Shown here piece by piece: positions 6,363 to 63,590 of a stretch of DNA of 64,000 bases. The notes beneath the pieces were generated by a model. The model worked only from the letters and a program-made list of their open reading frames with translations, was not told the origin of the DNA and did no database searches. The position numbers and the translations under genes are program-made. The stretch covers positions 103,077-167,076 of the forward strand of contig JAOAGT010000003.1 in NCBI GenBank assembly GCA_026415615.1, in the 5' to 3' direction. The stretch comes from Thermoleophilia bacterium. Lineage in GTDB: Bacteria > Actinomycetota > Thermoleophilia > RBG-16-64-13. Numbering within the stretch: position 1 is the first letter of the stretch; every line of letters starts with the position of its first letter.

Positions 6363-7613
6363 TTATCCGCCCTCCGGACGCAAGGCTCCTTCAGTATACT
6401 CAAGAGCGGGATCCCAAAGCAGCCATTCCGTAAACCCCTGTTCCTCAGCCGCTCTGATCTGAGCCTTTACTCTTTCCACTCCGTACTCCACCCCTCGGAG
6501 CGAGAAATCTTGAAGCCAAGGACGCCCCATGGCGCCTGTTCCTGCCAGTCTCTTAGCTGTCTCCTTCATCGCAGCAGAAACAGTCTCGTAGGGACTAGCA
6601 TTGGGGTTTTGAATCCCGTAAGAACCACTCTCATAGTGGGACGGGTACACCATCGGACACACTATGTCCACATTCTGAGCGATCTTCCAATAGCGCTGGC
6701 CGATCACGGCCGCATCACGGGTATCCATGATCGCAATGCCGAAGATATCCGCCGACACCCAAACCCCTAGCTTTTCCAGTCGTTGACGGGCATACGCCAA
6801 AAACCCAGCAATGGCGTCTTCTTTAGCGCAATACTCACCCGGATAGACAGCCTCCGAAATAGGACCGTCGCTCGGAAAACGCACGTAGTCAAACTGGATC
6901 TCTCTAAATCCATGCCGAGCGGCGTCTTCCGCTATTTGCACGAGATACTCCCACACCTCGTGCTTGTACGGGTTCGTGTAGTGAAGACCCTTCCAGTCGG
7001 CCCATTTACCTCCCTTGGAGCTGCGGACCGAGAGATCGGGCCTTGCTTCGGACAGGCGAGTATCCTTGAAACACACCACACGAGCAATTGGAACGATATT
7101 GTGCTTTGCCAAGGTCGCAAGCAAAGCATCAATGTCCTTTATGCGGTTCTCAATAAGCCCCAGCTTTTTTGCCATAGGCACATTCGCAGCGTACGTGATC
7201 TTGCCCCAGTCGTCCTTGACATCAATTACGAAAGCGTTGATTTCGGTCCTGTCAGCCAAGCCGAGCAATCTCGGCATCCATTCGTTGGACTGAACAGCGT
7301 AACTGCCAACGTAAATACCCTTCACTGGGGTATAGGAAAGGTCGCGAAAAGCGATCAGATCAACGAGAGGTTCTACCGAGTAGTCGGGCGCTGTGACTGC
7401 AGGCGTTGTGATCGACACGGCCTGCTCCGCAGAACGCCAAGGAAAGCCTGGTCCCCCAACCATCCAGCTTCCTAAAGACCAAAGCAGTACGAAGCCCGCA
7501 CCAAAAGCCGCCAGACCAGCAATAATGACGAATGTCATCCGAACCGCTATTCCTCGGCGACGCCGAGATGTTCGCAAGCGGGTGGTGGCTGTGTTAGCTT
7601 TTCTCGGCGGCAT
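6363..7613 (-). CDS. Membrane-anchored putative glycoside hydrolase (DUF4015-like TIM-barrel family)
   Basis: N-terminal Arg-rich segment and a TM helix; the motif NAFVIDVKDDWGKITY...IARVVCFKD...REIQFDYVRFP resembles the 'putative glycosyl hydrolase domain' family. Assigned from memory only. Confidence 0.45.
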   Translation of the reverse strand: MPPRKANTATTRLRTSRRRRGIAVRMTFVIIAGLAAFGAGFVLLWSLGSWMVGGPGFPWRSAEQAVSITTPAVTAPDYSVEPLVDLIAFRDLSYTPVKGIYVGSYAVQSNEWMPRLLGLADRTEINAFVIDVKDDWGKITYAANVPMAKKLGLIENRIKDIDALLATLAKHNIVPIARVVCFKDTRLSEARPDLSVRSSKGGKWADWKGLHYTNPYKHEVWEYLVQIAEDAARHGFREIQFDYVRFPSDGPISEAVYPGEYCAKEDAIAGFLAYARQRLEKLGVWVSADIFGIAIMDTRDAAVIGQRYWKIAQNVDIVCPMVYPSHYESGSYGIQNPNASPYETVSAAMKETAKRLAGTGAMGRPWLQDFSLRGVEYGVERVKAQIRAAEEQGFTEWLLWDPALEYTEGALRPEGG

Positions 7614-7658
7614 GGCGGAACTAGTGTATCAGAGGTATTTGATAAACTTCGTTACATT

Positions 7659-9937: not shown

Positions 9938-10010
9938 TGCCCACGGCAGGATTCGAACCTGCGGCACCTGGCTCCGGAGGCCAGTGCTCTATCCCCTGAG
10001 CTACGTGGGC
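9938..10010 (-). tRNA. tRNA-Arg (anticodon CCG), 73 nt, no encoded 3' CCA
   Basis: The reverse complement folds as a canonical cloverleaf: acceptor GCCCACG/CGTGGGC; D-stem GCTC/GAGC; anticodon stem CTGGC/GCCAG with loop CUCCGGA (U33, anticodon CCG); 5-nt variable loop; T-arm GCAGG-TTCGAAT-CCTGC; discriminator A followed by TTT. Confidence 0.9.
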
Positions 10011-10965: not shown

Positions 10966-11568
10966 TTAACTGGGATTTTCTGCCTCAGGTTGGTTGGCGT
11001 CGGTATCCGTAGCCGCGCCCCTGTGGCCCCTGTTGGCTCTGCGGCTGCCGCGGACGATAAGCCTGATTCTGTCCGCCTCTGAGCCTCTGGGCCAGTGGAA
11101 GAACGTGGGGTTGCAGCAGCCAGAAGGAGCGTACAAAGACTCATAAGCCTGCACTACCGTAACCCGGCAATGAGGCAAAGGAGGTCGCCAGATCCGCAAA
11201 TATCCGTACGGATCACGCACACTCGAGGGCTCGACGCCATCTTTGAGAAAAACATCCAACACCAGCTCGGGTAGAAAAACCTTGTGCAGGCAGCCAAAGT
11301 ACGAAGTCTCGCCTTCCTGAAAGACATAGATACAACGACATCCAGAACGCAGACACTGCCAGGGTGATACCACCCTTTCGCAAATCACCTCGCACTCGCG
11401 GCATTCCAAGCGCAGTCGCTCACGCAGCCGCTGCGCGCGTGCACTCAACCATGTGGTGTCGTCCGCGTGTTTCATGCTTTTCAGTATACCCTGGATCCAC
11501 ACCTCCGTGCCCCAGTATGGACACACCTCACCCGCCGGTAGAACTTTCCCACCGCGAGCCCGGCACAA
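10966..11568 (-). CDS. Hypothetical Cys-rich protein (13 Cys; CRECEVICER...CLRSGCRC motif), function unknown
   Basis: It is the only long ORF filling the 570-nt space between rnz and the pilin-cluster genes. A more likely start is the internal ATG at 11475 (MKHADD...), which removes the overlap with the upstream gene. Confidence 0.35.
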   Translation of the reverse strand: MCRARGGKVLPAGEVCPYWGTEVWIQGILKSMKHADDTTWLSARAQRLRERLRLECRECEVICERVVSPWQCLRSGCRCIYVFQEGETSYFGCLHKVFLPELVLDVFLKDGVEPSSVRDPYGYLRIWRPPLPHCRVTVVQAYESLYAPSGCCNPTFFHWPRGSEADRIRLIVRGSRRANRGHRGAATDTDANQPEAENPS

Positions 11569-12664
11569 GTCTGGCCCGCCTCAGCGAGCAATCAGTGGCC
11601 CACCGCAAGACCGCAGGGCAAAAAACCACTGTTCCGCTTTCACCCACGTCAACCGTGCCCGTCGCCATGACGGCCCCACACACTGTTGTTCCGTCCAGCA
11701 GTATTGACCCCTCATCCACTACGACGACAGCCCGCACGAGCCCAAGACCCCGCGCGTCTAGATCAGCTCCGCCGGTCAGCACAACCAAGACAGGCTCCGA
11801 GTTGTTCCGCACATGCAGCGCCTTCTCGGGGAAAGACACGCGTCGCCCCGTGCGCGCTTGGATAAGAAACACCCCCTCTTCAGCAACCACCCCGACGCGG
11901 TCCCCTGTTTCAGAGAGAAATCCTGTGTCTTGAATCTCTGCCATCAACGACACTGCAGTGCGCCAGCCTCCATCTAATGACCATGGCTCTTCTAGAGGTA
12001 AGACCTGACAGTTCTCTGCTATTGGGGCCACAGTCTCAGGGCGAGTGAGGTAAGCAACCGCGGGCCGAGCAGGCCCTTTTTCCTCGTCTGCACTCGACGT
12101 GTCTAACTCGTCATCTGCACTCGAAGTGTCCAAATCACTTTGTAGCCACACCTGGCTTCGAGTGGGATCGGCCATGACCTCCGTCGCCACTACCGCAGCA
12201 AAGGGAAGGTCGAGCCCGTCTCGTCCTCGTTCCACCCACGCACTCGCAGCCAGAGCACAGATTTGGGGGTCGTGGCGAACCGTCGCTTCCAAGGCCCAAT
12301 TCTCGCAACCGGGAATCGCCTCAAGTGCGCCTTCGACCCGCCCCAAGCCCGAGAAACTCTCAGTCTCAACACGGCTCCAAGGAGTCGGCTGCCAGCTAAG
12401 TAGGGCGCTGTACCGAAGTAAGTCAAGCGCTTGATCTCTCGCCAGCATGAAGTCTCTCCCACGCCTCTCATCCGCTGCTGCCCTGTGTGCGCAGATAAGC
12501 ACCGTCGAAAGCACCTGAATAGAAACGGCTGTCATCAAGGAGGCCAACAGAACGAAAAGAAGAACGGACCCCTGCGCACCGAGAAGCAACGGGTGCCTGC
12601 TACCTCTGGGAATGTGCCCCTTCAGGGAAGCCACACTACCTCCCCACAGGAGCTTCTGTGGCAA
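11528..12664 (-). CDS. Hypothetical membrane-anchored protein with acidic 9-aa tandem repeat; possibly a GspK-like degenerate pseudopilin
   Basis: N-terminal hydrophobic helix (LLLGAQGSVLLFVLLASLMTAVSIQVL) but no Glu at +5. Contains the repeat LDTSSADDE / LDTSSADEE. It is the last gene of the minus-strand pilin operon. Confidence 0.4.
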   Translation of the reverse strand: MPQKLLWGGSVASLKGHIPRGSRHPLLLGAQGSVLLFVLLASLMTAVSIQVLSTVLICAHRAAADERRGRDFMLARDQALDLLRYSALLSWQPTPWSRVETESFSGLGRVEGALEAIPGCENWALEATVRHDPQICALAASAWVERGRDGLDLPFAAVVATEVMADPTRSQVWLQSDLDTSSADDELDTSSADEEKGPARPAVAYLTRPETVAPIAENCQVLPLEEPWSLDGGWRTAVSLMAEIQDTGFLSETGDRVGVVAEEGVFLIQARTGRRVSFPEKALHVRNNSEPVLVVLTGGADLDARGLGLVRAVVVVDEGSILLDGTTVCGAVMATGTVDVGESGTVVFCPAVLRWATDCSLRRARLVPGSRWESSTGG

Positions 12665-13253
12665 CCGACACGAGCGCGACTAGATCATTGTCTGTCATCC
12701 TCAGATGAAGTGTCACAGCTCTTATCAGGGACATAGCACTCTGAAGAACCTGCTCCCGCGTGGACCCATCCTCCAGGACATATGCGAGCCGAGATGGCTG
12801 GGCCACATCATGGAGCATTGTCTTGTTGTCACGGTAAAGGGAGTGAGCAAAAGTTTTCGGTCGGAAACTGGGACAAAGTCCCCAACGACGCATGAGACTC
12901 CCCGACGCAATCTCCCACTCAACAATGATGGGAGTCTCTGAATTTGCCTCGCGACGCAAAAATACGAGCTGGCTGGGACCCGCCTCCAAGATTGGGCCGG
13001 CAGTGGCAAAACGGCACCCGTGGGCTGTAGCCAGGCGGAGATCTCTTTCAAGCCGGGCAACGGCAACCCGCCCCTGGAGATAGCCGACCATAGCGTCGGA
13101 TTCAGCAGAGGCTCTCTTGGTTACCGCGAGAAACAGGAGTCCCGCAGCGCCAACCAGAACGACCGTAACAACTAGGCCGATCAAGAGCTCAATCAGTGTA
13201 AAACCGTTATTGCTCCTAAAAGTAGACATCGAGAGAACGCCCGATCTCCACAA
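12636..13253 (-). CDS. Prepilin-type N-terminal cleavage/methylation domain protein (minor pilin / pseudopilin)
   Basis: Class III signal MSTFRSNNG|FTLIELLIGLVVTVVLV with Glu at +5. A more likely start is ATG at 13229. Confidence 0.7.
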   Translation of the reverse strand: MWRSGVLSMSTFRSNNGFTLIELLIGLVVTVVLVGAAGLLFLAVTKRASAESDAMVGYLQGRVAVARLERDLRLATAHGCRFATAGPILEAGPSQLVFLRREANSETPIIVEWEIASGSLMRRWGLCPSFRPKTFAHSLYRDNKTMLHDVAQPSRLAYVLEDGSTREQVLQSAMSLIRAVTLHLRMTDNDLVALVSVATEAPVGR

Positions 13254-14055
13254 GCCATGACTGGCTCTGTCCTTCGAGTTCTACTGTGACCACTCCCTCC
13301 CCGGCGGGACTTATCGTCCGCAGCAATCCTTTGCACTCGTCGGCTACCGTGCAGGGCAAACCAGTGGTATGCAAACCAGCTGTGGACAAGAACGGGATGT
13401 GCACCACCGCGGCAGCCCAATCCGGTGACTGCCCAGCCGCGGGTTCCAGGTCGCCCCCAGAGGTCTCACTGCAACTTGCAAATGAAGCGCCCTGAGTTTC
13501 TCCGTCGGAGACTTCGCTAACAGTGATGCGCCACGGTGCCCCCCAAGACCCCGTCACCTTGTGGACCCGGAGAACCACCTCGTGTCCTGCACTAGCAATC
13601 TGGGGTAGTCCGCTTTTCCAGCATTCGGGCGGCAACGCGGCCTCGCCGTTGTTAACCAGAAACTCGCCCTTAAACCAGCCGTCAATCCACAGACCCACCT
13701 TCTTGTAGCAGCCGGAATCCGCGCCGCCCGCGGGCAAGTCCCAGTCGTCTGAAACCGCAACCTTGAGCTCGCCGCGTGCATTCCACGAAACTGACTGAAC
13801 TTGTTCTCCCCAACACCAAGCCTTCTTGCCGTTTGCTTCGGTAGACTCCTTCTCCGCAGAGTCTGTTGCAGTTGCGGGCTGCTGCTCGGTGCGAAGAGCG
13901 GCCGAAGCCGAAGCCAGCGAGGCCGCCATGCTCACGAGGAAAACTGCCATTAGAGACAACACGACTACCGCCGCCAGGACCTCAAAGAGGAGAAAGCCTT
14001 GTTCCATTTGGCAGCTGTGGCAGAGTGCGTCCAGGCTTGGCCGTTCTTTCGTCAT
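13216..14055 (-). CDS. Prepilin-type minor pilin / pseudopilin
   Basis: MEQG|FLLFEVLAAVVVLSLMAV (Glu at +5). A more likely start is at 14007. Confidence 0.6.
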   Translation of the reverse strand: MTKERPSLDALCHSCQMEQGFLLFEVLAAVVVLSLMAVFLVSMAASLASASAALRTEQQPATATDSAEKESTEANGKKAWCWGEQVQSVSWNARGELKVAVSDDWDLPAGGADSGCYKKVGLWIDGWFKGEFLVNNGEAALPPECWKSGLPQIASAGHEVVLRVHKVTGSWGAPWRITVSEVSDGETQGASFASCSETSGGDLEPAAGQSPDWAAAVVHIPFLSTAGLHTTGLPCTVADECKGLLRTISPAGEGVVTVELEGQSQSWLVEIGRSLDVYF

Positions 14056-14612
14056 TACTTATCTGCCTCGTAGTTTCGAACGGTGAATCCCGAGACTGGA
14101 CGAACCACCACTCTGTAGCCTGCATTGTGAGAGTGGAAATAGACTGACCCGCCCCCGGACGGCGCTGCAAACTCACCGCTAAAGCGGACTCTAACGCCGT
14201 CTGATGACTGCCAGGAAGCAGGGTTGGCTGAGATAGAACGGACCGTAGGAAACTCGCCGAGATCAGAGCGAGTGTCGCCACCGCTAGCAACCAGGCATAG
14301 GTCGGTAGGACCGGCAACTATGGTGCGAGAACCACCACGCCACATTACATCTATCTGGGCCCAAGCTGCCGCGGCCTGCCAGCACTGGGCAGCTCCTCGG
14401 GCGCTTTGCACCATGAAGCCAGCATGTGCAAATCTAACGGCGGCAACCACACAGATGGCCACAACGGCAAGCACCACAAGAAGCTCCACCGCACTGAACC
14501 CGTACGCAGGCACGATGGCGCCACTACTGTCAAACGACCTTTTCATGCTCGATAGAGTAAAGCCGGAGGGTTGAGTTGGTGAGACAACCTTAGTTGGAGA
14601 ATGGCGGAACAA
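14055..14612 (-). CDS. Prepilin-type minor pilin / pseudopilin
   Basis: MKRSFDSSGAIVPAYG|FSAVELLVVLAVVAI. The start codon of the ORF-track call at 14612 is TTG; a more likely ATG start is at 14546. Confidence 0.7.
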   Translation of the reverse strand: MFRHSPTKVVSPTQPSGFTLSSMKRSFDSSGAIVPAYGFSAVELLVVLAVVAICVVAAVRFAHAGFMVQSARGAAQCWQAAAAWAQIDVMWRGGSRTIVAGPTDLCLVASGGDTRSDLGEFPTVRSISANPASWQSSDGVRVRFSGEFAAPSGGGSVYFHSHNAGYRVVVRPVSGFTVRNYEADK

Positions 14613-14711: not shown

Positions 14712-15239
14712 TTACCAGCCGAGTTCGGCCTCTCCGTCAACCACTTTCACCTTGACATACCCGGTTTGCCTGAGGTCGACGGTGTTCACCTGGATGCCAA
14801 ACAGGTTTCCGGTAGCGCTGCGGGTAGCGATGTCCAACACGGTCTTGGACTCGGGATAGAACGCGACTTGGGATTGGGCCGCCTCCGCGGTCAGGTCTTC
14901 ACTTATTCGAGGGGGAGCAGTCGAGACCAGGTCGGAGTCGCTCTCTAGAAAGCTTACGCTCGGCTCTATCTTATTGAGCATGTCGGCCGTGATCTCGGCA
15001 TAGGACCCCGTCTCCACCAAAGCACTTTGCACGACAGTAAGAGCATTGCGCACGAGTGAGTAGGCAGCTGTGTCGGCTGCGCGCTCTCGCTGCCCCGCAT
15101 ACAGGGGAATGGCTATTACAACCAAGATCGCGATCACGATGATTACTACTAGCAGCTCGACGAGGGTGAAACCTGCTTGGGGCGCAAGTGCATGAGTGAA
15201 CCAGACTCTGGTCGGAGGAAAGTCTTTTTTGGCCGCCAT
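14712..15239 (-). CDS. Type IV pilin (major-pilin-like, PilA/ComGC class), paralog 1
   Basis: ...APQAG|FTLVELLVVIIVIAILVVIAIPLYAGQRERAADTAAYSLVRNALT. No Cys in the mature protein. An AGGAGAGG RBS precedes the start. Confidence 0.8.
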   Translation of the reverse strand: MAAKKDFPPTRVWFTHALAPQAGFTLVELLVVIIVIAILVVIAIPLYAGQRERAADTAAYSLVRNALTVVQSALVETGSYAEITADMLNKIEPSVSFLESDSDLVSTAPPRISEDLTAEAAQSQVAFYPESKTVLDIATRSATGNLFGIQVNTVDLRQTGYVKVKVVDGEAELGW

Positions 15240-15287: not shown

Positions 15288-15941
15288 TCAGCCAGCGGGT
15301 GTCTTCTTTAGAGTGATGCCCTGGGCGGCAGCCTGCTCGAGCAGCTGCTGTGCTTCATCAGCCCGCCCTTGGGAAGAGAGCAGTCGGTACAAGATCTCGT
15401 AAGAGCGAGCATAGCCAGGTTCACTCTCTATCGCCTTCCGCAGGACTGCTTCTGCCCTAGCTTCGTCGCCGCAAGCGATCAGCGCTTGAGCCCAGAAGGT
15501 GAGGTTCTTCGCGCTAGGCTCAAGCGACGCCGCCTCACCAAGCACTCTTGCGGCATCGGCCGGCCTTCCCTGATGATTAAGGTAGTTGAAGCCGAGCTCC
15601 ACGCGCACTTGGGCGTTGTCAGGAACAAGCGCAACCACCCGCTCTTGCATGACAAGCGCTTCGTCGTAGCGTCCTAGAAGTAGAAGACACACCGAGGCCT
15701 GTTCCAGCGCCTCCGTGTCCTCCGGATGTTCGCGCAGGATCTCCTTGTAGAGTGACAGGGCGTGTTCAATATGGCCCTGTTCTTGAAGCGCGCGGGCTTG
15801 TCCTGCGCGGTCGCTGCAGCCGGAGAAGGCAAGAATCACGGAAGCAAGCGCCACAGCCAGAACCAGGCCGAGGGCTGCCAGCGCTGCGGAACGAGCCCGC
15901 ATCCCAATGCCTAGATAATTTGTTGCTCTTCTGCCCTGCAT
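15288..15941 (-). CDS. TPR-repeat lipoprotein (PilF/Tgl-like position inside pilin operon)
   Basis: Signal peptide ending LAFSGC (putative lipobox), then at least four TPR-like helical repeats (ALSLYKEILREHPEDTEALEQ..., ARSYEILYRLLSSQGRADEAQQLLEQA). Confidence 0.65.
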   Translation of the reverse strand: MQGRRATNYLGIGMRARSAALAALGLVLAVALASVILAFSGCSDRAGQARALQEQGHIEHALSLYKEILREHPEDTEALEQASVCLLLLGRYDEALVMQERVVALVPDNAQVRVELGFNYLNHQGRPADAARVLGEAASLEPSAKNLTFWAQALIACGDEARAEAVLRKAIESEPGYARSYEILYRLLSSQGRADEAQQLLEQAAAQGITLKKTPAG

Positions 15942-16086: not shown

Positions 16087-16548
16087 TCACCAGGCCGCTT
16101 CCTCACCGTCGATGTAGAAGGTGTTGCCACCGTTGGCACCTTTATTTACCAAGACACCGAAGGTCTTGCCTGACTCAGACTTTGAACCGACCTGGTATGT
16201 GTCAGCCGTGCCGTCATAGTTCACTTGGTTCTGCGAGGCAAGTGCGGTCGGAGCTGTAGCGGCATTTGCTAGTGGCACGAACGTTATTGACGGCTCAATA
16301 GCTTTGAGTACGTCCGCGGTCATCTGGGTGGGGACAAAGGTTCTTAGGTCAACGTACGCCGATTCAATCGCGGTCATGGCGTTACGAACCAGAGACTTTG
16401 CCGCGGCATCCTGTGCTTTCTGAAGCTGCCCCAGGAACGTCGGGATGGCGATAGCCGCCAGGATGGCGATGATAATGATCACCACCAAGAGTTCGATGAG
16501 GGTAAAGCCCTTCTCGCCCCTCATCCTTTTACGGATCAGACTTAACAT
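16087..16548 (-). CDS. Type IV pilin (major-pilin-like), paralog 2
   Basis: MLSLIRKRMRGEKG|FTLIELLVVIIIIAILAAIAIPTFLGQLQKAQDAAAKSLVRNAMT. A strong RBS AAGGAGGAGG lies 6 nt upstream of ATG 16548. The N-terminal 60 aa are near-identical to paralog 1 and the C-terminal domain is divergent. Confidence 0.8.
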   Translation of the reverse strand: MLSLIRKRMRGEKGFTLIELLVVIIIIAILAAIAIPTFLGQLQKAQDAAAKSLVRNAMTAIESAYVDLRTFVPTQMTADVLKAIEPSITFVPLANAATAPTALASQNQVNYDGTADTYQVGSKSESGKTFGVLVNKGANGGNTFYIDGEEAAW

Positions 16549-16618
16549 TGTTTGCCTCCTCCTTGTAACGTACTACTTTGCTTGCCTTTTCTTGCGGCCT
16601 TTCCAGCCCGTCGCTACT

Positions 16619-16645
16619 TTGATCGGCATTTTGTGCTTGGACTTT
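16619..16645 (-). promoter_or_regulatory. Candidate sigma-28 (SigD/FliA)-type promoter, CTAAAG-N15-GCCGATCA, upstream of pilin paralog 2
   Basis: The reverse complement of 16619-16646 reads CTAAAG-(15 nt)-GCCGATCA. Against the consensus TAAA-N15-GCCGATAT this is 4/4 at -35 and 6/8 at -10. It lies about 70 nt upstream of the start codon. Confidence 0.25.
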
Positions 16646-16811
16646 AGCGGTCTTTTGGAGGCACACAACTGAGACTTTTGGCCGACTGCGGCCGATGACG
16701 CAGCGCTCGCCTAGCGCTTGCCTGCGGGGATAACGCCCATTCCTGACCGCCTGCTGCTACCCAGTCCTAACCCCCTGCCGCCGAATTGCCGTGGCTGGCT
16801 GGCGCTGAGTG

Positions 16812-16857
16812 GGTAAAACGACAATTAGGTAAAGCGACAGGTATATTTTGTCGATAT
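16812..16857 (+). promoter_or_regulatory. Direct repeat GGTAAARCGACA x2 (16812-16823, 16828-16839) overlapping a candidate sigma-28-type promoter TAAAG-N15-GTCGATAT (16830-16857)
   Basis: -35 TAAA at 16830-16833 and -10 GTCGATAT at 16850-16857 (7/8 to GCCGATAT). It lies about 85-130 nt upstream of the PilV-like gene. An AT-rich TATATT/TATATA stretch is adjacent. Confidence 0.25.
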
Positions 16858-16940
16858 ATACGAGATGAAAGAGGAAGCATGCCAAGCAACGAGGCTGAGC
16901 AACCCGATAAGCCTGAGCAATCGACTAGGCACACCTACCC

Positions 16941-18512
16941 ATGAAAAGCAAGATGCTGACACAAGCAACTAGGTACAGGGAACATATGCCGCGGCACAAA
17001 GCAAAGCACCGCGGAAGAGCGGGCCTGCGTGGCTTCACGCTCATTGAAGTGCTTATTGCCTCGATGCTCCTCCTGATTGTTATGGCTGGAATAGTCCCGT
17101 TCTTCGTGGGCGGATTGGCGCAGGCGTCTACTGTCCGCTACAAGAGCCTTGCCACCAATATCGCTCGCGAGCGTATGGAACAAATCCGCCAGCTTGATTA
17201 TCGCGAAATAACAGAGAATCCTGCAGAAGGTACTACGCTAAGCGCGCGTTTTGGCACTACCGCGGAGCGTCGCGGCATAAAGTTCAATATCTCGTATAAG
17301 GTAGAGTCCTCCACATACGACACTGGGTTGCTCAAGAAAGTTACGGTCACAGTTTCCTGGACTGCTCCGCCGCGGGTATCCCCAGCGTCGATAACCACCC
17401 TTATCCACCAACAGTTCCTGGGGCCGCGAGGTGCTTACCTTGAGCTGTCGCCAACCCAGTCAGATCCGTTGGGTACTCCGTTTCCACTGATAGCCGGGTC
17501 CAGCACGCGCATTCGCTACCACATAGCTGAAGCAGATTGGGGGCTAGTATTCCGAGACGTGACCAAACCCAGCACAACTGCGAGAGATGTATTTGCGCGC
17601 TTCTTCTTTGTGGGCAGCGATGGTAGGACTATCTTTCTAGGGGACCCCGATGACGAGAACCGCATCGACACCGCTTATTTGCGCTACTCTACCAGCGGAA
17701 GCCAACTAACCGACGTCTGGTTTGAGTACTCGTTCGACACACGGCTTATCCCAGACGGATATTGGGAGCTCCGGGCAGTCGCCTACAACGAATACGAGCA
17801 ACCGGGCAACGTCTGGCGCCTTAGAGTAAGAATCGAGAACGGCGCCCCGGCCGCTCCCACTCAATTCACGGCAGTTGCTCAGCCGGACAATCAAAGCGTA
17901 GTCCTATACTGGCTGGGAGGCCCAGAGTCCGACCGCGACCATTACGTGCTGGAGCGCTCGGTTTGGAATAGCCAAGCCCAACAGTGGACTTCCTGGCAGC
18001 CGGTGGCTCCAAACATCGCCCCTGACACTGTCACATACACCGACCAGGGAAGCGTCGCCTTAAAGGTTCATCCTTGGGGTAGTCAAGAGACAACAAACTG
18101 GTACCTGTATCGCATCTACGCCGTTGACAGGCAGCCTGGCAACATCGGACCCGCTGCCGCGCTAACCCAGCCAGTGGTAATACCTCCCATGACTACCACC
18201 ACGACCACGCAGACAACTACGACAGTCTCCACGACCAGTACCACGACCATCTCCACTACTACGACGACTCTCGCCACTTACTCGGTCAAGGTGCAGAACA
18301 ACGCAAAATCGCACTACCGGGTGGATGTGCGAAACGCTTCGAATGCCCTGGTCTACACTGGCACGGTGAAGAAAGGCCAGACCTTGACCATCTCCGGGCT
18401 ACCGGCAGGGCAGTACAAAATAGACGCCACACCAATCAGTGGCGGATCTATAGTCTCGGCCTCCTTCTCTTTGCCCGCACAGGCCGACCAGATTGTTCTT
18501 ACTTTGCTCTAG
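16941..18512 (+). CDS. PilV-like prepilin-type protein with FN3-like domain, Thr-rich linker and C-terminal beta-sandwich domain (putative pilus-associated adhesin)
   Basis: Class III signal ...RAGLRG|FTLIEVLIASMLLLIVMAGIV. An FN3-type pattern (PAAPTQFTAVAQPDNQSVVLYWLGGPESDRDHYVLERS...W...YTDQG). A T-rich linker (TTTTTQTTTTVSTTSTTTISTTTTT). A roughly 90-aa C-terminal domain. A more likely start is ATG 16986 (MPRHKAKHRG...). Confidence 0.7.
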   Translation: MKSKMLTQATRYREHMPRHKAKHRGRAGLRGFTLIEVLIASMLLLIVMAGIVPFFVGGLAQASTVRYKSLATNIARERMEQIRQLDYREITENPAEGTTLSARFGTTAERRGIKFNISYKVESSTYDTGLLKKVTVTVSWTAPPRVSPASITTLIHQQFLGPRGAYLELSPTQSDPLGTPFPLIAGSSTRIRYHIAEADWGLVFRDVTKPSTTARDVFARFFFVGSDGRTIFLGDPDDENRIDTAYLRYSTSGSQLTDVWFEYSFDTRLIPDGYWELRAVAYNEYEQPGNVWRLRVRIENGAPAAPTQFTAVAQPDNQSVVLYWLGGPESDRDHYVLERSVWNSQAQQWTSWQPVAPNIAPDTVTYTDQGSVALKVHPWGSQETTNWYLYRIYAVDRQPGNIGPAAALTQPVVIPPMTTTTTTQTTTTVSTTSTTTISTTTTTLATYSVKVQNNAKSHYRVDVRNASNALVYTGTVKKGQTLTISGLPAGQYKIDATPISGGSIVSASFSLPAQADQIVLTLL

Positions 18513-19197
18513 GAAAGAGTGGATGGTGGCAAGCGAGATGGCAACTCGGTCGACACGATTTCTAACAACTAGACGCGTTCGACCCGGGAGGGATGCCGCA
18601 GGCTTCACTCTTGTGGAAGCCTTGGTTACGGCCGTGCTGATTGCTGTCGTTTTGCTTGCAATTTTCACCATCTGGTTTGGGCTGCAGCGCACCTACGCTT
18701 TTACAGAAGAGGACATGAAGGCGCAGCAGGAGGCGAGAAATGCTCTCTCGGAGATGGTCGAGCTCATTCGCACAGCTCGACGGCCCAACCCAGCACCTTC
18801 AGAGAATCTGGACTTGGTCATTGTTACAGCAGACAGCAACTCGCTGGTGTTGTGGTCCGACGTGGATCGTGACCCGCAGCATGATCTCGAGTTAGTGCGC
18901 TTTCGCGTGGATTTCCAGTCGCGCACGCTCTACCGCGACGTGAGCCAGACCGGTGATATCACTTTTTCTTCGGGCACATCAGTTCGACTGGTGAGTAGTT
19001 GGGTGACCAACGACGAAACTCTGCCGCTTTTTACGTACATTGACTCGAAGGGGATCACATTGCCTACCCCGGTGCCGGATCCTGTAGCCATTCGGCAAGT
19101 AGTGATTGACCTGCGTATAGACGTGGAGGTCGGCAAATCGCCGATTGCACACGAGCTTCGCTCCACAGTACAACCCCGAAATCTGCGCCAGTACTAG
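18493..19197 (+). CDS. PilW-like prepilin-type minor pilin
   Basis: ...RDAAG|FTLVEALVTAVLIAVVLLAIFTIW with Glu at +5. It overlaps the end of the upstream gene by 20 nt, suggesting translational coupling. Confidence 0.65.
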   Translation: MFLLCSRKEWMVASEMATRSTRFLTTRRVRPGRDAAGFTLVEALVTAVLIAVVLLAIFTIWFGLQRTYAFTEEDMKAQQEARNALSEMVELIRTARRPNPAPSENLDLVIVTADSNSLVLWSDVDRDPQHDLELVRFRVDFQSRTLYRDVSQTGDITFSSGTSVRLVSSWVTNDETLPLFTYIDSKGITLPTPVPDPVAIRQVVIDLRIDVEVGKSPIAHELRSTVQPRNLRQY

Positions 19198-19218: not shown

Positions 19219-20436
19219 ATGACTGCCAGGAAGACCGTCCAAGCAGTGACCTGTATTCGGGAGAGATTAGCTAGAGAGTCCGGAGTGGTCCTCATAGTTG
19301 TGATGGCCTTTGTGGCGGTGTTCGCAGCTACGGGCGCCGGACTCTACTGGCTGGTGTCTTCGCAAACTAACGCCACTGAGCTTGAACGCACAGATGTCAA
19401 GGCTTTCAATGTCGCAGAAGCAGGCATAGATGCTGGCATGCTTGCCCTTAAGCTGAACTGGCCTGACGCTCCCGATAAGGTAGCCGCCGTTGACAATGAC
19501 ATTCTAAAGACTGTCATTCAGCAAAACAGCCCTGGCTTGTGGGACCCAAAACGGTCTAACCCGAGCGAGTTTATCCAGGTGGAGATATACGACAATGTCG
19601 ACGCCTCGGGCAATACCACAAGCGTTGCGAATCCAGACCCGTCCACACGCGTTTATTGGGATTCGAACAAGGACGGCCTGATGTTTGTCGACTCTACCGC
19701 TAACGTCGACGATGACCGGCACCGCATTCTGATCCTGGCCCAGCGACAGTACTGGGATCTTACCTTCCCCGTGGGTCTAGCCCTATGGTCAGGAGTTGTG
19801 GACAGCAACGGACAAGGCTTGTACGTAACTGTAGAGGATCCAAACCCTGCCCCATATGTTCCATATGCTTTTTACGATGTACACGACGCTCAAGGCAAGA
19901 AGATAAGTGCAGGGTACGCGGTTGCCCCAGCTCCTTCAGCATCTTCATTCAATGAGGTATTCCCGGAGTCACTGCGAGCCGCGCTGGAAGCCATCGCCCG
20001 AGAGCAGGGCACCTATTTCACTAGCGACACTCAGGCAAGTGCCTTCCTTGCCTCGGGCCAAGCTGGTGGAAAGGTCGTGTACATCAAGTCAAACTCAGCT
20101 GTAACCATAAGCGGCGACAAGCGGGTGGGAAGCAAAGATTCACCCGTGGTGGTAATAATTGACACGCCCGACAACTCAGAAAATGTCTGGGACTTTCGAG
20201 GAACAGCTGATTTCTACGGCGTCCTCGTTACGATCGGAAACAGCACCCTACGAGGAACTTCCGGCATACACGGAGCCCTCTACTGCTCGGGTACGTTGCT
20301 CAACAAGGGCACTGGCTCTAGCGGCGAGATTAATTACAACCAGACCTGCATCCAAAACATAAACAGGCAGTACACCATCAGCGTAAACATCGTTCCCAAC
20401 ACCTGGGAGGAGTATACGCTGCCCCGCTCGCAGTAG
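19219..20436 (+). CDS. PilX N-terminal-domain protein (putative pilus tip / minor pilin)
   Basis: The N-terminus ESGVVLIVVMAFVAVFAATGAGLYWL...KAFNVAEAGIDAGMLAL matches the PilX_N pattern (hydrophobic helix followed by AF..AEAG). 405 aa. Confidence 0.6.
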   Translation: MTARKTVQAVTCIRERLARESGVVLIVVMAFVAVFAATGAGLYWLVSSQTNATELERTDVKAFNVAEAGIDAGMLALKLNWPDAPDKVAAVDNDILKTVIQQNSPGLWDPKRSNPSEFIQVEIYDNVDASGNTTSVANPDPSTRVYWDSNKDGLMFVDSTANVDDDRHRILILAQRQYWDLTFPVGLALWSGVVDSNGQGLYVTVEDPNPAPYVPYAFYDVHDAQGKKISAGYAVAPAPSASSFNEVFPESLRAALEAIAREQGTYFTSDTQASAFLASGQAGGKVVYIKSNSAVTISGDKRVGSKDSPVVVIIDTPDNSENVWDFRGTADFYGVLVTIGNSTLRGTSGIHGALYCSGTLLNKGTGSSGEINYNQTCIQNINRQYTISVNIVPNTWEEYTLPRSQ

Positions 20437-60445: not shown

Positions 60446-61480
60446 CTATCCGACAACTTCCCCCTGGTCGGATGCGCTAGCCCCATTCGGCTCCTCGGAG
60501 ACCGCCTGAGTCTGGAGTTCCTCTTCGACCCGAGTCTGCTCCCCCGTGTCTTCTCCGACACTAGCCTGACCGCGCTGCCTGGCAGCCTCTCTTGCGGAGC
60601 CGCTGCGCGGCAGCTGCCGTCCTCCGAGTGTAGTCTGCGCTCCTGCGCCCCGGCCAGCGCCGCCACCTCTCGAGCCGCGGCCGCCGCGGAACGAGCGCTC
60701 ATCGGTAGGTTCCTCACCTAGATCGTAAAACGTCCGTGTGCGCTCGCTAGAACGGACAGACGCGGCCGATTGAGCAGCCAGGAACTCTGAGACCTGCATC
60801 TTGGCCCGCCCCTCTTCTACCGCGCGTGCCAGCGTACGGATAATGAGGCCGCATGAGCGGATGGCGTCATCATTGCCGGGGATGACATAGTCCACGTCGT
60901 CGGGGTCACAGTTAGTGTCGCACAGGGCGATCAAGGGGATGCCTAGTTTGGCCACCTCTTTAGCTGCTATTGCCTCACGCTTGGGGTCAGCGATAAAAAC
61001 CGCATCGGGCAGCCGAGTCATGTTGCAAACGCCGCCCAGGTTGATCTCGAGCTTCTCAAGCTCACGCTCCATGGACATACGCTCTTTTGTAGGAAGCAGA
61101 TTGAGCTGCCCCTCCTCCTTGAGACGACGCAACTCGTGCAACCGACGGATTCTCGTCTCAATGGTTGAGAAGTTGGTAAGTAGTCCACCCAGCCACCTGT
61201 GAGAGACATACGGCATACCTACGCGCTCGGCCTCTTCTTTGATGATGTCTTGGCACTGCTTCTTAGTGCCAACGAACAAAATCACGCCCCCCCGACTAGC
61301 CACGTTGCGAACAAAGTCGTACGCTCGGTCTAGAAGTTCGCTGGTCTGCTGAAGGTCGATTATGTGGATCCCGCCCCTCTCGGTGAAGATGTAGGGCTTC
61401 ATCTTGGGATTCCAACGACGTGTTTGGTGGCCGAAGTGGACTCCTGACTCCAGGAGCTCCTTCATAGAAACAACGGGCAT
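60446..61480 (-). CDS. rpsB: 30S ribosomal protein S2 with about 90-aa Gly/Arg-rich acidic C-terminal extension
   Basis: [27 protein letters not shown]. Confidence 0.9.
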
Positions 61481-61651: not shown

Positions 61652-62461
61652 CTACTCATCTAGAGCGTCAGAATCCAGAACCTCGCGAAGTCGACCGCGC
61701 AGACGCAATATAGCCTTTGTATGTAATTGGGACACCCGCGACTCGGTGACCCCTAGGATCTCTCCAATTTCTCGTAGAGTCAGACCCTCATAGTAGTAGA
61801 GGCTGATCACTACCCTTTCGCGCTCCGGCAAGCGTTCAATGGCTGCGGCTAGGGTTTCCTTCACCGCCTGGATCCGGTAGGTCTTCCATGGGTCCGGGGC
61901 CTCAGCGTCTTCTAAGGTCTCAAGCAGATTAGGCTTGTCGTTCGCGGATCCGGTCGAATCCCAGAGCTCATCAAGAGCAACCACTGAGGTCGAGCTAAGG
62001 TCGCTAAGAATGCACTCGAACTCCTCAGGAGTAACACCTAGCTCGCACGCGATTTCCTCGTCGCTAGGAGCTCTTCCAAGACGGTTCTCGAGTGCAGTGA
62101 CCGCAGCCTCTACCTTGCGTCCCCAACTTCGCACCGAGCGAGGCACCCAGTCGAGAGCGCGCAACTCGTCAATGATGGACCCCCTTATTCGGGCGATGGC
62201 GTAGGTCTCAAACTTGATGTTTCGCGACGGATCAAAACGCTCCAGTGCGCCTATAAGTCCTAAGAGCCCGTACGAGACTAAATCCTCTTCATCAACGTGC
62301 GCTGGGAGTCCGCTGCTCATCCGCCCGGCCACATACTTGACTAAGGGCGAGTAGGCGAGGATCAGTTGATCGCGCGCCCGCAGGTCGCCCTCCTGTTTGT
62401 ATAGCCGCCAGGCTTCTTGTAGGTCCATCTGCTTGGCCGAGTCGGTCCGCATCATCTGCAC
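61652..62461 (-). CDS. sigD: RNA polymerase sigma-28 factor (FliA/SigD/WhiG family)
   Basis: Region 2.x GLIGALERFDPSRNIKFETYAIARIRGSIIDELR and region 4 LPERERVVISLYYYEGLTLREIGEILGVTESRVSQLH align closely with B. subtilis SigD. The ORF-track start at 62461 is GTG; the first ATG is at 62455. Confidence 0.8.
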   Translation of the reverse strand: MQMMRTDSAKQMDLQEAWRLYKQEGDLRARDQLILAYSPLVKYVAGRMSSGLPAHVDEEDLVSYGLLGLIGALERFDPSRNIKFETYAIARIRGSIIDELRALDWVPRSVRSWGRKVEAAVTALENRLGRAPSDEEIACELGVTPEEFECILSDLSSTSVVALDELWDSTGSANDKPNLLETLEDAEAPDPWKTYRIQAVKETLAAAIERLPERERVVISLYYYEGLTLREIGEILGVTESRVSQLHTKAILRLRGRLREVLDSDALDE

Positions 62462-62509
62462 ACTTCAAGCAACTCTTTACTCATCTGCACACTTCAAGCA
62501 AGTCTTTAC
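62452..62509. repeat. 29-bp tandem direct repeat x2 (one mismatch) spanning the sigma-28 start codon and upstream region
   Basis: TCATCTGCACACTTCAAGCAACTCTTTAC at 62452-62480 and TCATCTGCACACTTCAAGCAAGTCTTTAC at 62481-62509. Each copy contains GTGCAGATGA on the coding strand. Confidence 0.6.
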
Positions 62510-62534: not shown

Positions 62535-63590
62535 CTATGCCCTGGGATGCGCGCGGCGGTAGACTTTGCGCAGATGAGCAGCCGAAACATGAGCGTACAC
62601 CTGCGTTGTGCGCAGAGAGGAATGCCCGAGCAGCTCCTGAATCACCCTGAGATCAGCGCCTCCCTCGAGCAAATGGGTAGCAAAAGAGTGCCTTAAAGTA
62701 TGCGGAGATGCGCCCACCGACGCCCCGCAACGGTGCAAGTGACGTATCAGGCGCCGGTAAACATCTGAAGAAGATAGCGGCTTTCCTCTGCGGCTGAGAA
62801 AAAGATGATCCTCTTCTAGTTGCGTCACGAGCCTGGGACGACCTTGCTCCAAATACGTCCTTAGGGCGGCAAGCGCTTCGTCCCCAACGGGAACCACTCT
62901 CATCTTGCGCCCTTTCCCCGTGACGCGAATTTCTCGCGACGCAAAACTCACGTCATTTAGCCTTAGGCTCACTGCTTCCTGGCATCGCAAACCGGACGAG
63001 TATATTAGCTCAAACAGAGCACGGTCCCTGAGGTCAAGAGGTTCGGGGCCGCCGATTCCCTCAAGAAGGGCAGCCGCTTGTTCGGGAGTAAGCACGTGGG
63101 GTAACCGCTTGGGCAACTTTGGGGTTCTTACCCCTTCTGCAGGGTTGGTGTTCACCAAACCATCGTCTTCGCAAAAACGCAGGAAGCTGCGCACTACGGA
63201 CAACTTGCGCGCAATAGTGCTGCGAGCGTATGGCCGGCTCGCTTTCGCGATCGGGCCCGCTCCCGTCTTGCGGGTGACCCAAGAAGCCGACGTTGCGCCG
63301 ACTTCTGCCAAAGTTGAGACGTAATCGCCTATGTCGCCAGGGCTGACGTCCCGCAAACAGTAGAGGCCACGAGAACTTAGGAATGCGCTGAATTGATTGA
63401 GATCACTTTGGGCGGCTGCTACAGTCCGAGGACTATAGCCAGCGGCGATCAAACCGCGAAGAAACGCCGCAATTGCTACTTCGATGTGGTTGCCACCAGC
63501 CTGCTGGTCGTGAATTGGGGTTATGCTCTCTTCCTTCCGGCCGTTTCGCATTCGCGGTCCCGCCATATAACAGTTGCCTTGCCTAGTCAC
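62535..63590 (-). CDS. xerC: Tyrosine recombinase XerC/XerD family
   Basis: N-terminal SAM-like domain and catalytic R...HxxR...Y (HTLRHSFATHLLEGGADLRVIQELLGHSSLRTTQVYAHV). Confidence 0.85.
   Translation of the reverse strand: MTRQGNCYMAGPRMRNGRKEESITPIHDQQAGGNHIEVAIAAFLRGLIAAGYSPRTVAAAQSDLNQFSAFLSSRGLYCLRDVSPGDIGDYVSTLAEVGATSASWVTRKTGAGPIAKASRPYARSTIARKLSVVRSFLRFCEDDGLVNTNPAEGVRTPKLPKRLPHVLTPEQAAALLEGIGGPEPLDLRDRALFELIYSSGLRCQEAVSLRLNDVSFASREIRVTGKGRKMRVVPVGDEALAALRTYLEQGRPRLVTQLEEDHLFLSRRGKPLSSSDVYRRLIRHLHRCGASVGASPHTLRHSFATHLLEGGADLRVIQELLGHSSLRTTQVYAHVSAAHLRKVYRRAHPRA

Follow-up and report, generated by a model that had tools for sequence, protein, structure and literature searches.

Comparative sequence analysis supports the conclusion that two divergently oriented pilin operons of an uncultured actinobacterium carry genuine, evolutionarily conserved promoters of the sigma-28 class. 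A sigma factor of the same family, WhiG, is encoded in the window (the whole stretch of 64,000 nucleotides, or 64 kb, that was analysed), and we consider it likely that this WhiG drives both operons through the divergent promoters, with a probable RsiG/c-di-GMP gate.

Two sigma-28-type sites lie between divergent pilin operons

The pilin gene clusters and the two sites between them are as follows:

11528-14612, minus strand: four ORFs (14055-14612, 13216-14055, 12636-13253 and 11528-12664)
14712-15239, minus strand: second prepilin, 175 aa (N_methyl / IV_pilin_GFxxxE)
15288-15941, minus strand: TPR-repeat protein, encoded between the pilin genes (Pfam TPR families)
16087-16548, minus strand: major prepilin, 153 aa, leader MLSLIRKRMRGEKG/FTLIELL (TIGR02532; PF07963 N-terminal methylation motif; weak PilA4 match)
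16620-16646, minus strand: predicted WhiG/sigma-28-type promoter for the major pilin operon (TAAA at 16646-16643 as -35, N15, GCCGATCA at 16627-16620 as -10)
16830-16857, plus strand: predicted WhiG/sigma-28-type promoter for the PilV-like minor-pilin operon (TAAA at 16830-16833 as -35, N16, GTCGATAT at 16850-16857 as -10)
16941-18512, plus strand: large PilV-like minor pilin, 523 aa (508 aa if translation starts at ATG 16986; N_methyl; weak PilV/GspI matches)
18493-19197, plus strand: PilW/PilV-like minor pilin (N_methyl; weak TIGR02523 match)
19219-20436, plus strand: PilX/GspK-like minor pilin, 405 aa (weak NF037980 GspK match, residues 21-91)

The TPR gene, which is also present in the related loci L002 and L003, lies on the pilin strand and therefore probably forms one transcription unit with the pilins. 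Among the four ORFs at 11528-14612, PF07963 was detected on 14055-14612 and 12636-13253, while the other two (13216-14055 and 11528-12664) had no family; since two of the four possess prepilin N-termini, the group is regarded as minor-pilin-like. The N-terminus of the major prepilin is kept in all related loci. On the opposite strand, the PilV-like protein combines a Thr-rich linker with a C-terminal domain, possibly serving as an adhesin or a tip subunit; its orthologues were identified in L001-L019, and in L002 PilX/GspK-like orthologues sit after the PilV-like gene. The visible pilus genes are these pilin and minor-pilin operons, and no pilB, pilC, pilT or pilM was found in the window.

Both sites are intergenic and face a start codon less than 200 bp away, as is characteristic of sigma-28 promoters, and their spacers, N15 before the pilin and N16 before the PilV-like gene, fall within the 15-16 nt that sigma-28 requires. 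Relative to the consensus TAAA/GCCGATAA, the minus-strand site has one mismatch, its -10 element carrying C for A at position 7, and the plus-strand site has two, with T for C at position 2 of its -10 element; both keep an intact CGA core. An earlier note on this DNA had reported sigma-28-type matches in both divergent pilin promoters, and both motifs are indeed present. Its spacing holds on the plus strand (TAAAG-N15), whereas its CTAAAG-N15 on the minus strand is off by one and should read CTAAAG-N14, which equals TAAA-N15.

The pilin ATG (16548) is located 71 nt past the end of the minus-strand -10 element. The pilin transcription start site (TSS) is predicted at approximately 16613-16611 on the minus strand, and the predicted 5' UTR of the major pilin spans approximately 63 nt and includes the putative Shine-Dalgarno sequence GGAGGAGG. 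On the plus strand, 84 nt (ATG 16941) or 129 nt (ATG 16986) separate the -10 element from the PilV-like start, and the TSS of this operon is predicted at approximately 16864-16866. Within the pilin leader of the window, no riboswitch or other known RNA was found, and the fold of the 68-nt leader was not unusual (z = -0.3).

The sites are rare by chance and conserved in related loci

The window was scanned with a published rule (TAAA/GCCGATAA with at most two mismatches, N15/16) and with a stricter 2026 rule (T[AC]AA-N15/16-GCCGA, CGA core fixed). The published rule identified two sites in the 437-nt spacer, and at least two were obtained in just 8 of 5000 dinucleotide shuffles; in all intergenic DNA of the window it identified three, a count matched in 3 of 1000 shuffles. 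Across the whole 64-kb window, seven sites were found versus 4.7 expected, and coding DNA is therefore not enriched. The stricter rule returned 14 sites in 64 kb, of which the two in the pilin spacer were the only intergenic ones.

Two further candidates were rejected. A potential autoregulatory promoter of whiG (TAAA-N16-GCAGATGA, 62481-62508) has a broken CGA core; the site owes its existence to a 29-bp tandem duplication not shared by the 97%-identical relative L023, and in other relatives the xerC-whiG gap is 4-12 nt, with no such site. The other candidate, at 7601-7628 on the minus strand (TACA/GCCGAGAA, two mismatches), lies across the beginning of a DUF4015 gene and cannot be told from background.

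The comparison with loci of other uncultured Actinomycetota, whose PilV-like proteins are 43-77% identical, revealed the same motif in the same orientation in 15 orthologous loci on the PilV-like side and in 11 on the pilin side. In the 15 PilV-side loci, which are non-redundant, the N16 site is located 44-208 nt 5' of the PilV-like match, and it is a perfect consensus in L001 and L017. An N15 site in the same orientation precedes the pilin gene in L001, L004, L005, L007-L010, L017 and L019, while the pilin-side spacer of L002 is N16; the published T(A/C)AA variant TCAA is used by four loci. Overall, 16 of the 17 loci with upstream DNA carry a WhiG-type promoter at their pilin operons. In L003, the pilin-side site is degenerate (N14, three mismatches) and none was found at the PilV-like gene. 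Conservation is confined to the blocks cTAAAG and GCCGATA, with an information content of approximately 2 bits solely at TAAAG and GCCGATA and approximately 0 in the spacer and flanks, so that the DNA between and around the blocks is unconserved. In the 19 related loci, 27 sites fall in 8.5 kb of divergent zones versus 4 in 124 kb elsewhere.

The sigma factor of the window is a WhiG

The sigma factor gene and its neighbours are as follows:

60446-61480, minus strand: rpsB, downstream neighbour of whiG (context)
61652-62461, minus strand: whiG, sigma-28 family, RsiG-associated WhiG2 type, probable start ATG 62455
62535-63590, minus strand: xerC, upstream neighbour of whiG (TIGR02224/NF001399)

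The direct flanking of the gene by xerC and rpsB, as described in the earlier note, is confirmed. The gene is not a Firmicute SigD: the protein passed the NCBIfam WhiG equivalog NF004935 (351.4 bits, cut-off 343) and failed the FliA/SigD equivalogs NF005809 (238.8 versus 326), NF004572 (213.4 versus 378) and NF009091 (133.2 versus 339), which identifies it as the actinobacterial WhiG. It aligns without gaps over 249 residues with Streptomyces venezuelae WhiG (6PFV; 62% identity, E=4e-87), and a 267-aa homologue with 97% identity is known. The same note had pointed to the missing fla/che operon upstream; the operon is absent, xerC and dprA being located there, but xerC-whiG-rpsB is the normal conserved actinobacterial arrangement, and the order dprA-xerC-whiG-rpsB-tsf is conserved in L020, L022 and L023. 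The distance from whiG to the pilin cluster is approximately 45 kb in both genomes where it is visible, namely the window and the relative represented by L008 and L020, in which whiG and the pilin cluster share one 459-kb contig.

The residues that contact c-di-GMP and RsiG in WhiG, as listed in PMC12871210, are largely retained. K57, G61 and R62 (S. venezuelae numbering), which contact c-di-GMP, are identical, and the stretch PLVKYVAGR is unchanged relative to 6PFV; among the RsiG-contacting sigma-4 residues, L236, Y239, E240 and L242 are identical and T235S is conservative. Since WhiG retains these binding residues, its activity is probably gated as in Rubrobacter, a reading that draws on residue conservation and analogy. 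A strict and a relaxed search of the window in six frames, and a strict one of the fetched loci L001-L023 in six frames, found no RsiG motif ExxxSxxRxxxQxxxD; rsiG can lie apart from whiG. No GGDEF or EAL genes were found among the ORFs of the 64-kb window scanned with Pfam, nor were WhiG-type promoters at DGC/PDE genes, as in the Rubrobacter feedback, found within the window.

In the scheme that we propose, a pair of promoters belonging to the sigma-28 (FliA/SigD/WhiG) class points outward from within the spacer at 16549-16940, and WhiG-RNA polymerase would recognise their -35 TAAA and -10 GCCGAT(C/A)A. The leftward transcript would cover the major pilin, the TPR protein, the second pilin and the minor pilins, and the rightward transcript the PilV-like, PilW-like and PilX-like genes. 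With both operons read by WhiG-RNA polymerase, pilus subunit production would thus be placed under one alternative sigma factor. RsiG, encoded elsewhere, would sequester WhiG together with c-di-GMP, and pilin transcription would rise as c-di-GMP falls.

In the sister loci L002 and L003, a c-di-GMP-I riboswitch is located between the WhiG-type promoter and the major pilin gene. Only tentatively, and with the odds somewhat against it, we suggest that WhiG control of the clade's pilin operons is ancestral and near-universal and that the major pilin of L002 and L003 is controlled twice by c-di-GMP. If true, an anti-sigma factor acting at initiation and a riboswitch acting at elongation, both responding to c-di-GMP, would converge on one gene; a two-tier c-di-GMP arrangement of this kind for actinobacterial pili was not found described in the literature.

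Alternative explanations

The promoters could be real sigma-28 promoters that are read mainly by another paralogue encoded elsewhere, a flagellum-linked WhiG1/FliA, in which case the pili would be controlled together with an intact flagellar/chemotaxis regulon, as happens in Actinoplanes, and the loss of the flagellar regulon supposed in the earlier note would not have occurred. The target motifs of WhiG1 and WhiG2 overlap and are bioinformatically inseparable (PMC12871210), pilus and flagellar genes of Actinoplanes are both transcribed with WhiG-like sigma factors (PMC8325347), and the visible portion of the genome is 64 kb. However, the sole sigma-28-family gene seen is of the WhiG2 type and is linked to the pil genes at an equal distance in two genomes, and no flagellar genes were seen among the window ORFs or the fetched loci that were inspected. 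We consider this explanation unlikely, and WhiG of the window the preferred candidate.

A considerably less probable reading is that housekeeping sigma promoters drive the operons and that a different DNA-binding regulator occupies the conserved bipartite element. A sigma-70-like ACGACA-18-TATATT (16818-16847) overlaps the plus-strand site, but sigma-70-type matches in the spacer are at chance level (1 versus 0.6 expected). The elements match the sigma-28 consensus exactly in their conserved bases, their 15/16-nt spacing and their orientation toward each gene, with unconserved DNA between the blocks, and they are asymmetric, whereas the sites of dimeric regulators typically are not. That both matches arose by chance in an AT-richer spacer has hardly any probability left: the sites were picked post hoc in the earlier note and the window count does not exceed expectation, yet the pair was rarely reproduced in shuffled spacers, and chance is effectively refuted by the retention of the sites, but not of the DNA between their two blocks, in 15 and 11 divergent loci.

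Comparison with known systems

The idea put forward in the earlier note, that a flagellar-type sigma factor drives type IV pilins, is essentially right in kind, with conserved promoters and a cognate sigma factor in the window, although the factor is not a Firmicute SigD; it is also not new (PMC8325347; PMC12871210). By itself, the finding opens no new question. It extends a published rewiring, in which a flagellar-family sigma factor controls type IV pili, probably under c-di-GMP, to a broad group of uncultured Actinomycetota, with comparative evidence that is unusually clean: two promoters, each of fixed spacing, across at least 15 divergent loci. Such conservation speaks for pilus control being a long-standing function of WhiG in basal Actinobacteria, and the loci supply promoter/sigma pairs ready for testing.

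The closest parallel is Rubrobacter, in which Schumacher et al. (PNAS 2021; PMC8325347) showed that WhiG controls type IV pili: three of the 12 TSS-validated WhiG promoters of R. radiotolerans sit in the pil cluster, and the switch of R. radiotolerans and R. xylanophilus is (RsiG)2-(c-di-GMP)2-WhiG. The window likewise combines WhiG of a basal actinobacterium, with its c-di-GMP and RsiG contact residues kept, with TAAA/GCCGATAA-type promoters inside the pilus gene cluster that would serve several pil transcription units; there are two, one at the pilin and one at the minor-pilin operon, both conserved in relatives. It differs in lineage, which is another, uncultured one (GC ~57%; among named relatives, MAGs labelled Thermoleophilia or Actinomycetota are closest), in that its promoters are read from sequence whereas those of Rubrobacter are TSS-validated, and in having no DGC/PDE targets in the window.

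In a survey of 673 reference genomes, Denis et al. (bioRxiv 2026; PMC12871210) described the WhiG2 clade and its predicted regulons, in which type IV pilus genes recur as a class of predicted targets. A flagellar-type sigma factor acting on type IV pili is reported there for Actinoplanes, with predictions for five further families. The taxa listed are Rubrobacteraceae, Cellulomonadaceae, Jonesiaceae, Sanguibacteraceae, Cryptosporangiaceae and Actinoplanes, and the clade of the window, an uncultured one, is not among these names. Their motif T(A/C)AA-N16-GCCGA with its fixed CGA core fits both sites as well as the TCAA variants of the relatives.

B. subtilis SigD and E. coli FliA share the sigma family and the promoter consensus with the window WhiG, and the position of whiG is partly syntenic with B. 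subtilis, as noted by Chater & Chandra 2013 (PMC4255298). In contrast to these systems, no fla/che operon lies upstream of the window gene, no FlgM is expected, and the apparent targets are pilins instead of flagellar genes. Streptomyces WhiG, which is regulated by RsiG and c-di-GMP, shares 62% identity (6PFV) and the conserved chromosomal neighbourhood with the protein described here but targets the sporulation genes whiH and whiI, whereas the predicted targets in the window are the pilin operons.

Two outward-facing sigma-28-type sites between divergent pilin genes

Inspection of the divergent spacer between a pilin gene (16087-16548, minus strand) and a PilV-like gene (plus strand, ATG at 16941 or 16986) revealed two sigma-28-type sites, and the genes that flank the spacer on both sides are type IV pilin genes.

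TAAA 16646-16643, N15, GCCGATCA 16627-16620, minus strand: site facing the major pilin
TAAA 16830-16833, N16, GTCGATAT 16850-16857, plus strand: site facing the PilV-like gene
Leftward genes, minus strand: 153-aa prepilin, TPR protein, 175-aa prepilin and four further ORFs (two of the four with prepilin N-termini)
Rightward genes, plus strand: 523-aa PilV-like, PilW/PilV-like and GspK/PilX-like proteins

Both motifs claimed in the earlier note were found in the spacer sequence. The plus-strand spacing is exactly as written there, while the minus-strand motif, written as CTAAAG-N15, is off by one in its spacing and reads CTAAAG-N14 (i.e. TAAA-N15).

A 21-codon upstream ORF (MPSNEAEQPDKPEQSTRHTYP, 16879-16944), preceded by a good Shine-Dalgarno sequence (AGAGGAAG), begins about 15 nt past the predicted plus-strand start site, and its TGA overlaps the PilV-like ATG at 16941 (ATGA). 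Its peptide is not conserved in the related pilin loci L001 or L004, the latter having a 3-codon ORF in the corresponding position. Elsewhere in the window, a tRNA gene (9938-10010, minus strand; Rfam tRNA, 69.9 bits) is located between lipoate-ligase-like and RNase Z-like genes.

Enrichment and conservation of the sites

With the search rule taken over from the Rubrobacter study (TAAA / GCCGATAA, at most two mismatches, N15-16), the whole window contains 7 distinct sites against 4.7 expected, and coding DNA is thus without enrichment. The same rule gave two sites in the 437-nt spacer, a count matched by 8 of 5000 dinucleotide-preserving shuffles, and three in all intergenic DNA (3.4 kb), matched by 3 of 1000 shuffles. 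Applied to the window, the stricter criterion from the 2026 survey (T[AC]AA-N15/16-GCCGA, one mismatch allowed, CGA fixed) identified 14 sites, of which only the two in the spacer lie outside coding sequence. A sigma-70-type promoter scan of the spacer yielded matches at chance level.

Genome and metagenome scans with the PilV-like protein as query gathered 19 loci (proteins 43-77% identical), all from uncultured Actinomycetota, those with names being 'Actinobacteria bacterium RBG_16_64_13', 'Actinomycetes bacterium SKS1.bin6' and 'Actinomycetota bacterium Soudan_30'. Of the 19, 17 extend upstream of the PilV-like gene, and in 16 of these 17 an oriented TAAA/TCAA-N16-GCCGATNN site precedes the PilV-like match by 44-208 nt; the motif is perfect in L001 and L017. 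Eleven sequences (window counted) reach the divergent major pilin or the DNA upstream of it, and an oriented site precedes it in every one. Locus L003 is the exception: its pilin is preceded by a degenerate site (N14), and its PilV-like gene lacks a convincing one. Across the loci, the divergent zones hold 27 sites in 8.5 kb, and the remaining 124 kb hold 4. Columns at cTAAAG and GCCGATA carry about 2 bits of information each, and those of the spacer and flanks almost none, so residual similarity does not explain the conservation.

The one-nucleotide spacer difference is itself kept: pilin promoters have TAAA-N15 in 10 of 11 sequences (N16 in L002), and PilV-like promoters have TAAA-N16 in all 15 of a non-redundant set (window counted, two near-duplicate loci dropped). 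The pilin promoters also have in common a conserved GCGA, located about 6-9 nt past the -10 element.

The sigma factor gene and its neighbourhood

The ORF at 61652-62461 scores above the NCBI WhiG equivalog cut-off (351.4 vs 343 bits) and fails the equivalog-level FliA/sigma-28 models NF005809, NF004572 and NF009091; the sigma-28 family named in the earlier note holds, and the SigD assignment gives way to WhiG. Metagenomes contain many homologues at 70-79% identity, the named ones being WhiG of Thermoleophilia or Actinomycetota MAGs. The protein aligns without gaps to Streptomyces venezuelae WhiG (PDB 6PFV/6PFJ; E = 4e-87). Relative to the latter, and using the contact list of PMC12871210, all three c-di-GMP-touching residues (K57, G61, R62) and four of five RsiG-touching residues are identical, the fifth being T235S. 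Such a set of kept residues is characteristic of WhiG2, the RsiG-associated clade.

Nor is the gene the 'orphan' of the earlier note. It occupies its conserved actinobacterial position, and the order UPF0102-comM-dprA-xerC-whiG-rpsB-tsf-pyrH-frr is identical in three relatives, so that whiG is not an odd orphan. In one relative, whiG and the pilin cluster share a 459-kb contig and lie about 45 kb apart, as in the window. Partial synteny of the whiG position with Bacillus subtilis was noted before by Chater & Chandra 2013 (PMC4255298). The surrounding housekeeping synteny block is long and conserved:

38371-63994: dprA-xerC-whiG-rpsB-tsf-pyrH-frr-uppS-cdsA-dxr-rseP-ispG-proS-nusA-infB-rbfA-truB-ribF-rpsO-pnp-M16 peptidase

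This block mirrors a stretch of the B. subtilis chromosome where the fla/che operon, with sigD as its last gene, is located between codV/codY and rpsB. The whiG translation start is spanned by a 29-bp tandem duplication (one mismatch, 62452-62509), which is single-copy in L023, the 97%-identical relative. The duplication gives rise to an upstream ORF of 10 codons and, 20 nt ahead of whiG, to a weak TAAA-N16-GCAGATGA match; this match lacks conservation and probably has no meaning.

The best-supported reading is that of two outward-facing WhiG-dependent promoters, through which a single alternative sigma factor would control both pilin operons. RNA polymerase carrying WhiG would read both spacer promoters; the transcription starts, the dependence on WhiG and the reach of each operon are predictions. 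That the sites instead belong to a complete motility regulon served by a different sigma-28 paralogue appears improbable to us. For the WhiG-dependent promoters, c-di-GMP-loaded RsiG would probably keep the sigma factor inactive, as suggested by Rubrobacter and Streptomyces and by the conserved contact residues. An RsiG motif was found neither in the window nor in any fetched locus, and the window ORFs scanned included no GGDEF/EAL genes.

A c-di-GMP riboswitch in two sister loci

Two of the pilin loci, L002 and L003, carry a c-di-GMP-I-clan aptamer (Rfam RF03167, gathering score 59) between the sigma-28-type promoter and the major-pilin ORF; it is absent from the window, L001 and L004-L019.

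L002:4685-4759, minus strand: c-di-GMP-I-clan aptamer, 59.0 bits
L003:4822-4896, minus strand: c-di-GMP-I-clan aptamer, 61.7 bits

Both have A at the position where the GGC-variant consensus has G, and they therefore resemble canonical c-di-GMP-I aptamers. The L003 aptamer is followed by a terminator-like hairpin (GGGUUCGUGG...CCCACGAACC) and UUUUU. In both loci, inserted genes split the divergent spacer (L002:4967-5903, L003:5092-5754), namely a NUDIX-like ORF in each and an additional 112-aa ORF in L002, and the two pilin promoters there have lost their back-to-back arrangement. Our literature search found no paper tying a c-di-GMP riboswitch to actinobacterial pilins.

Comparison with known WhiG systems

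Using the identical consensus, Schumacher et al. 2021 (PMC8325347) scanned Rubrobacter genomes and confirmed 12 promoters by capturing 5' ends, three of them inside the type IV pilus cluster; they also note that in Actinoplanes, pilus and flagellar genes are transcribed with WhiG-like sigmas. Denis et al. 2026 (PMC12871210) separated a flagellum-linked WhiG1 clade from an RsiG-linked WhiG2 clade and predicted type IV pilus genes as targets in five additional families. Given this published work, the earlier proposal of a flagellar-type sigma factor driving pilins is right in kind and not new. What the present case adds is a clade of uncultured bacteria and a clean footprint from the comparison of loci.
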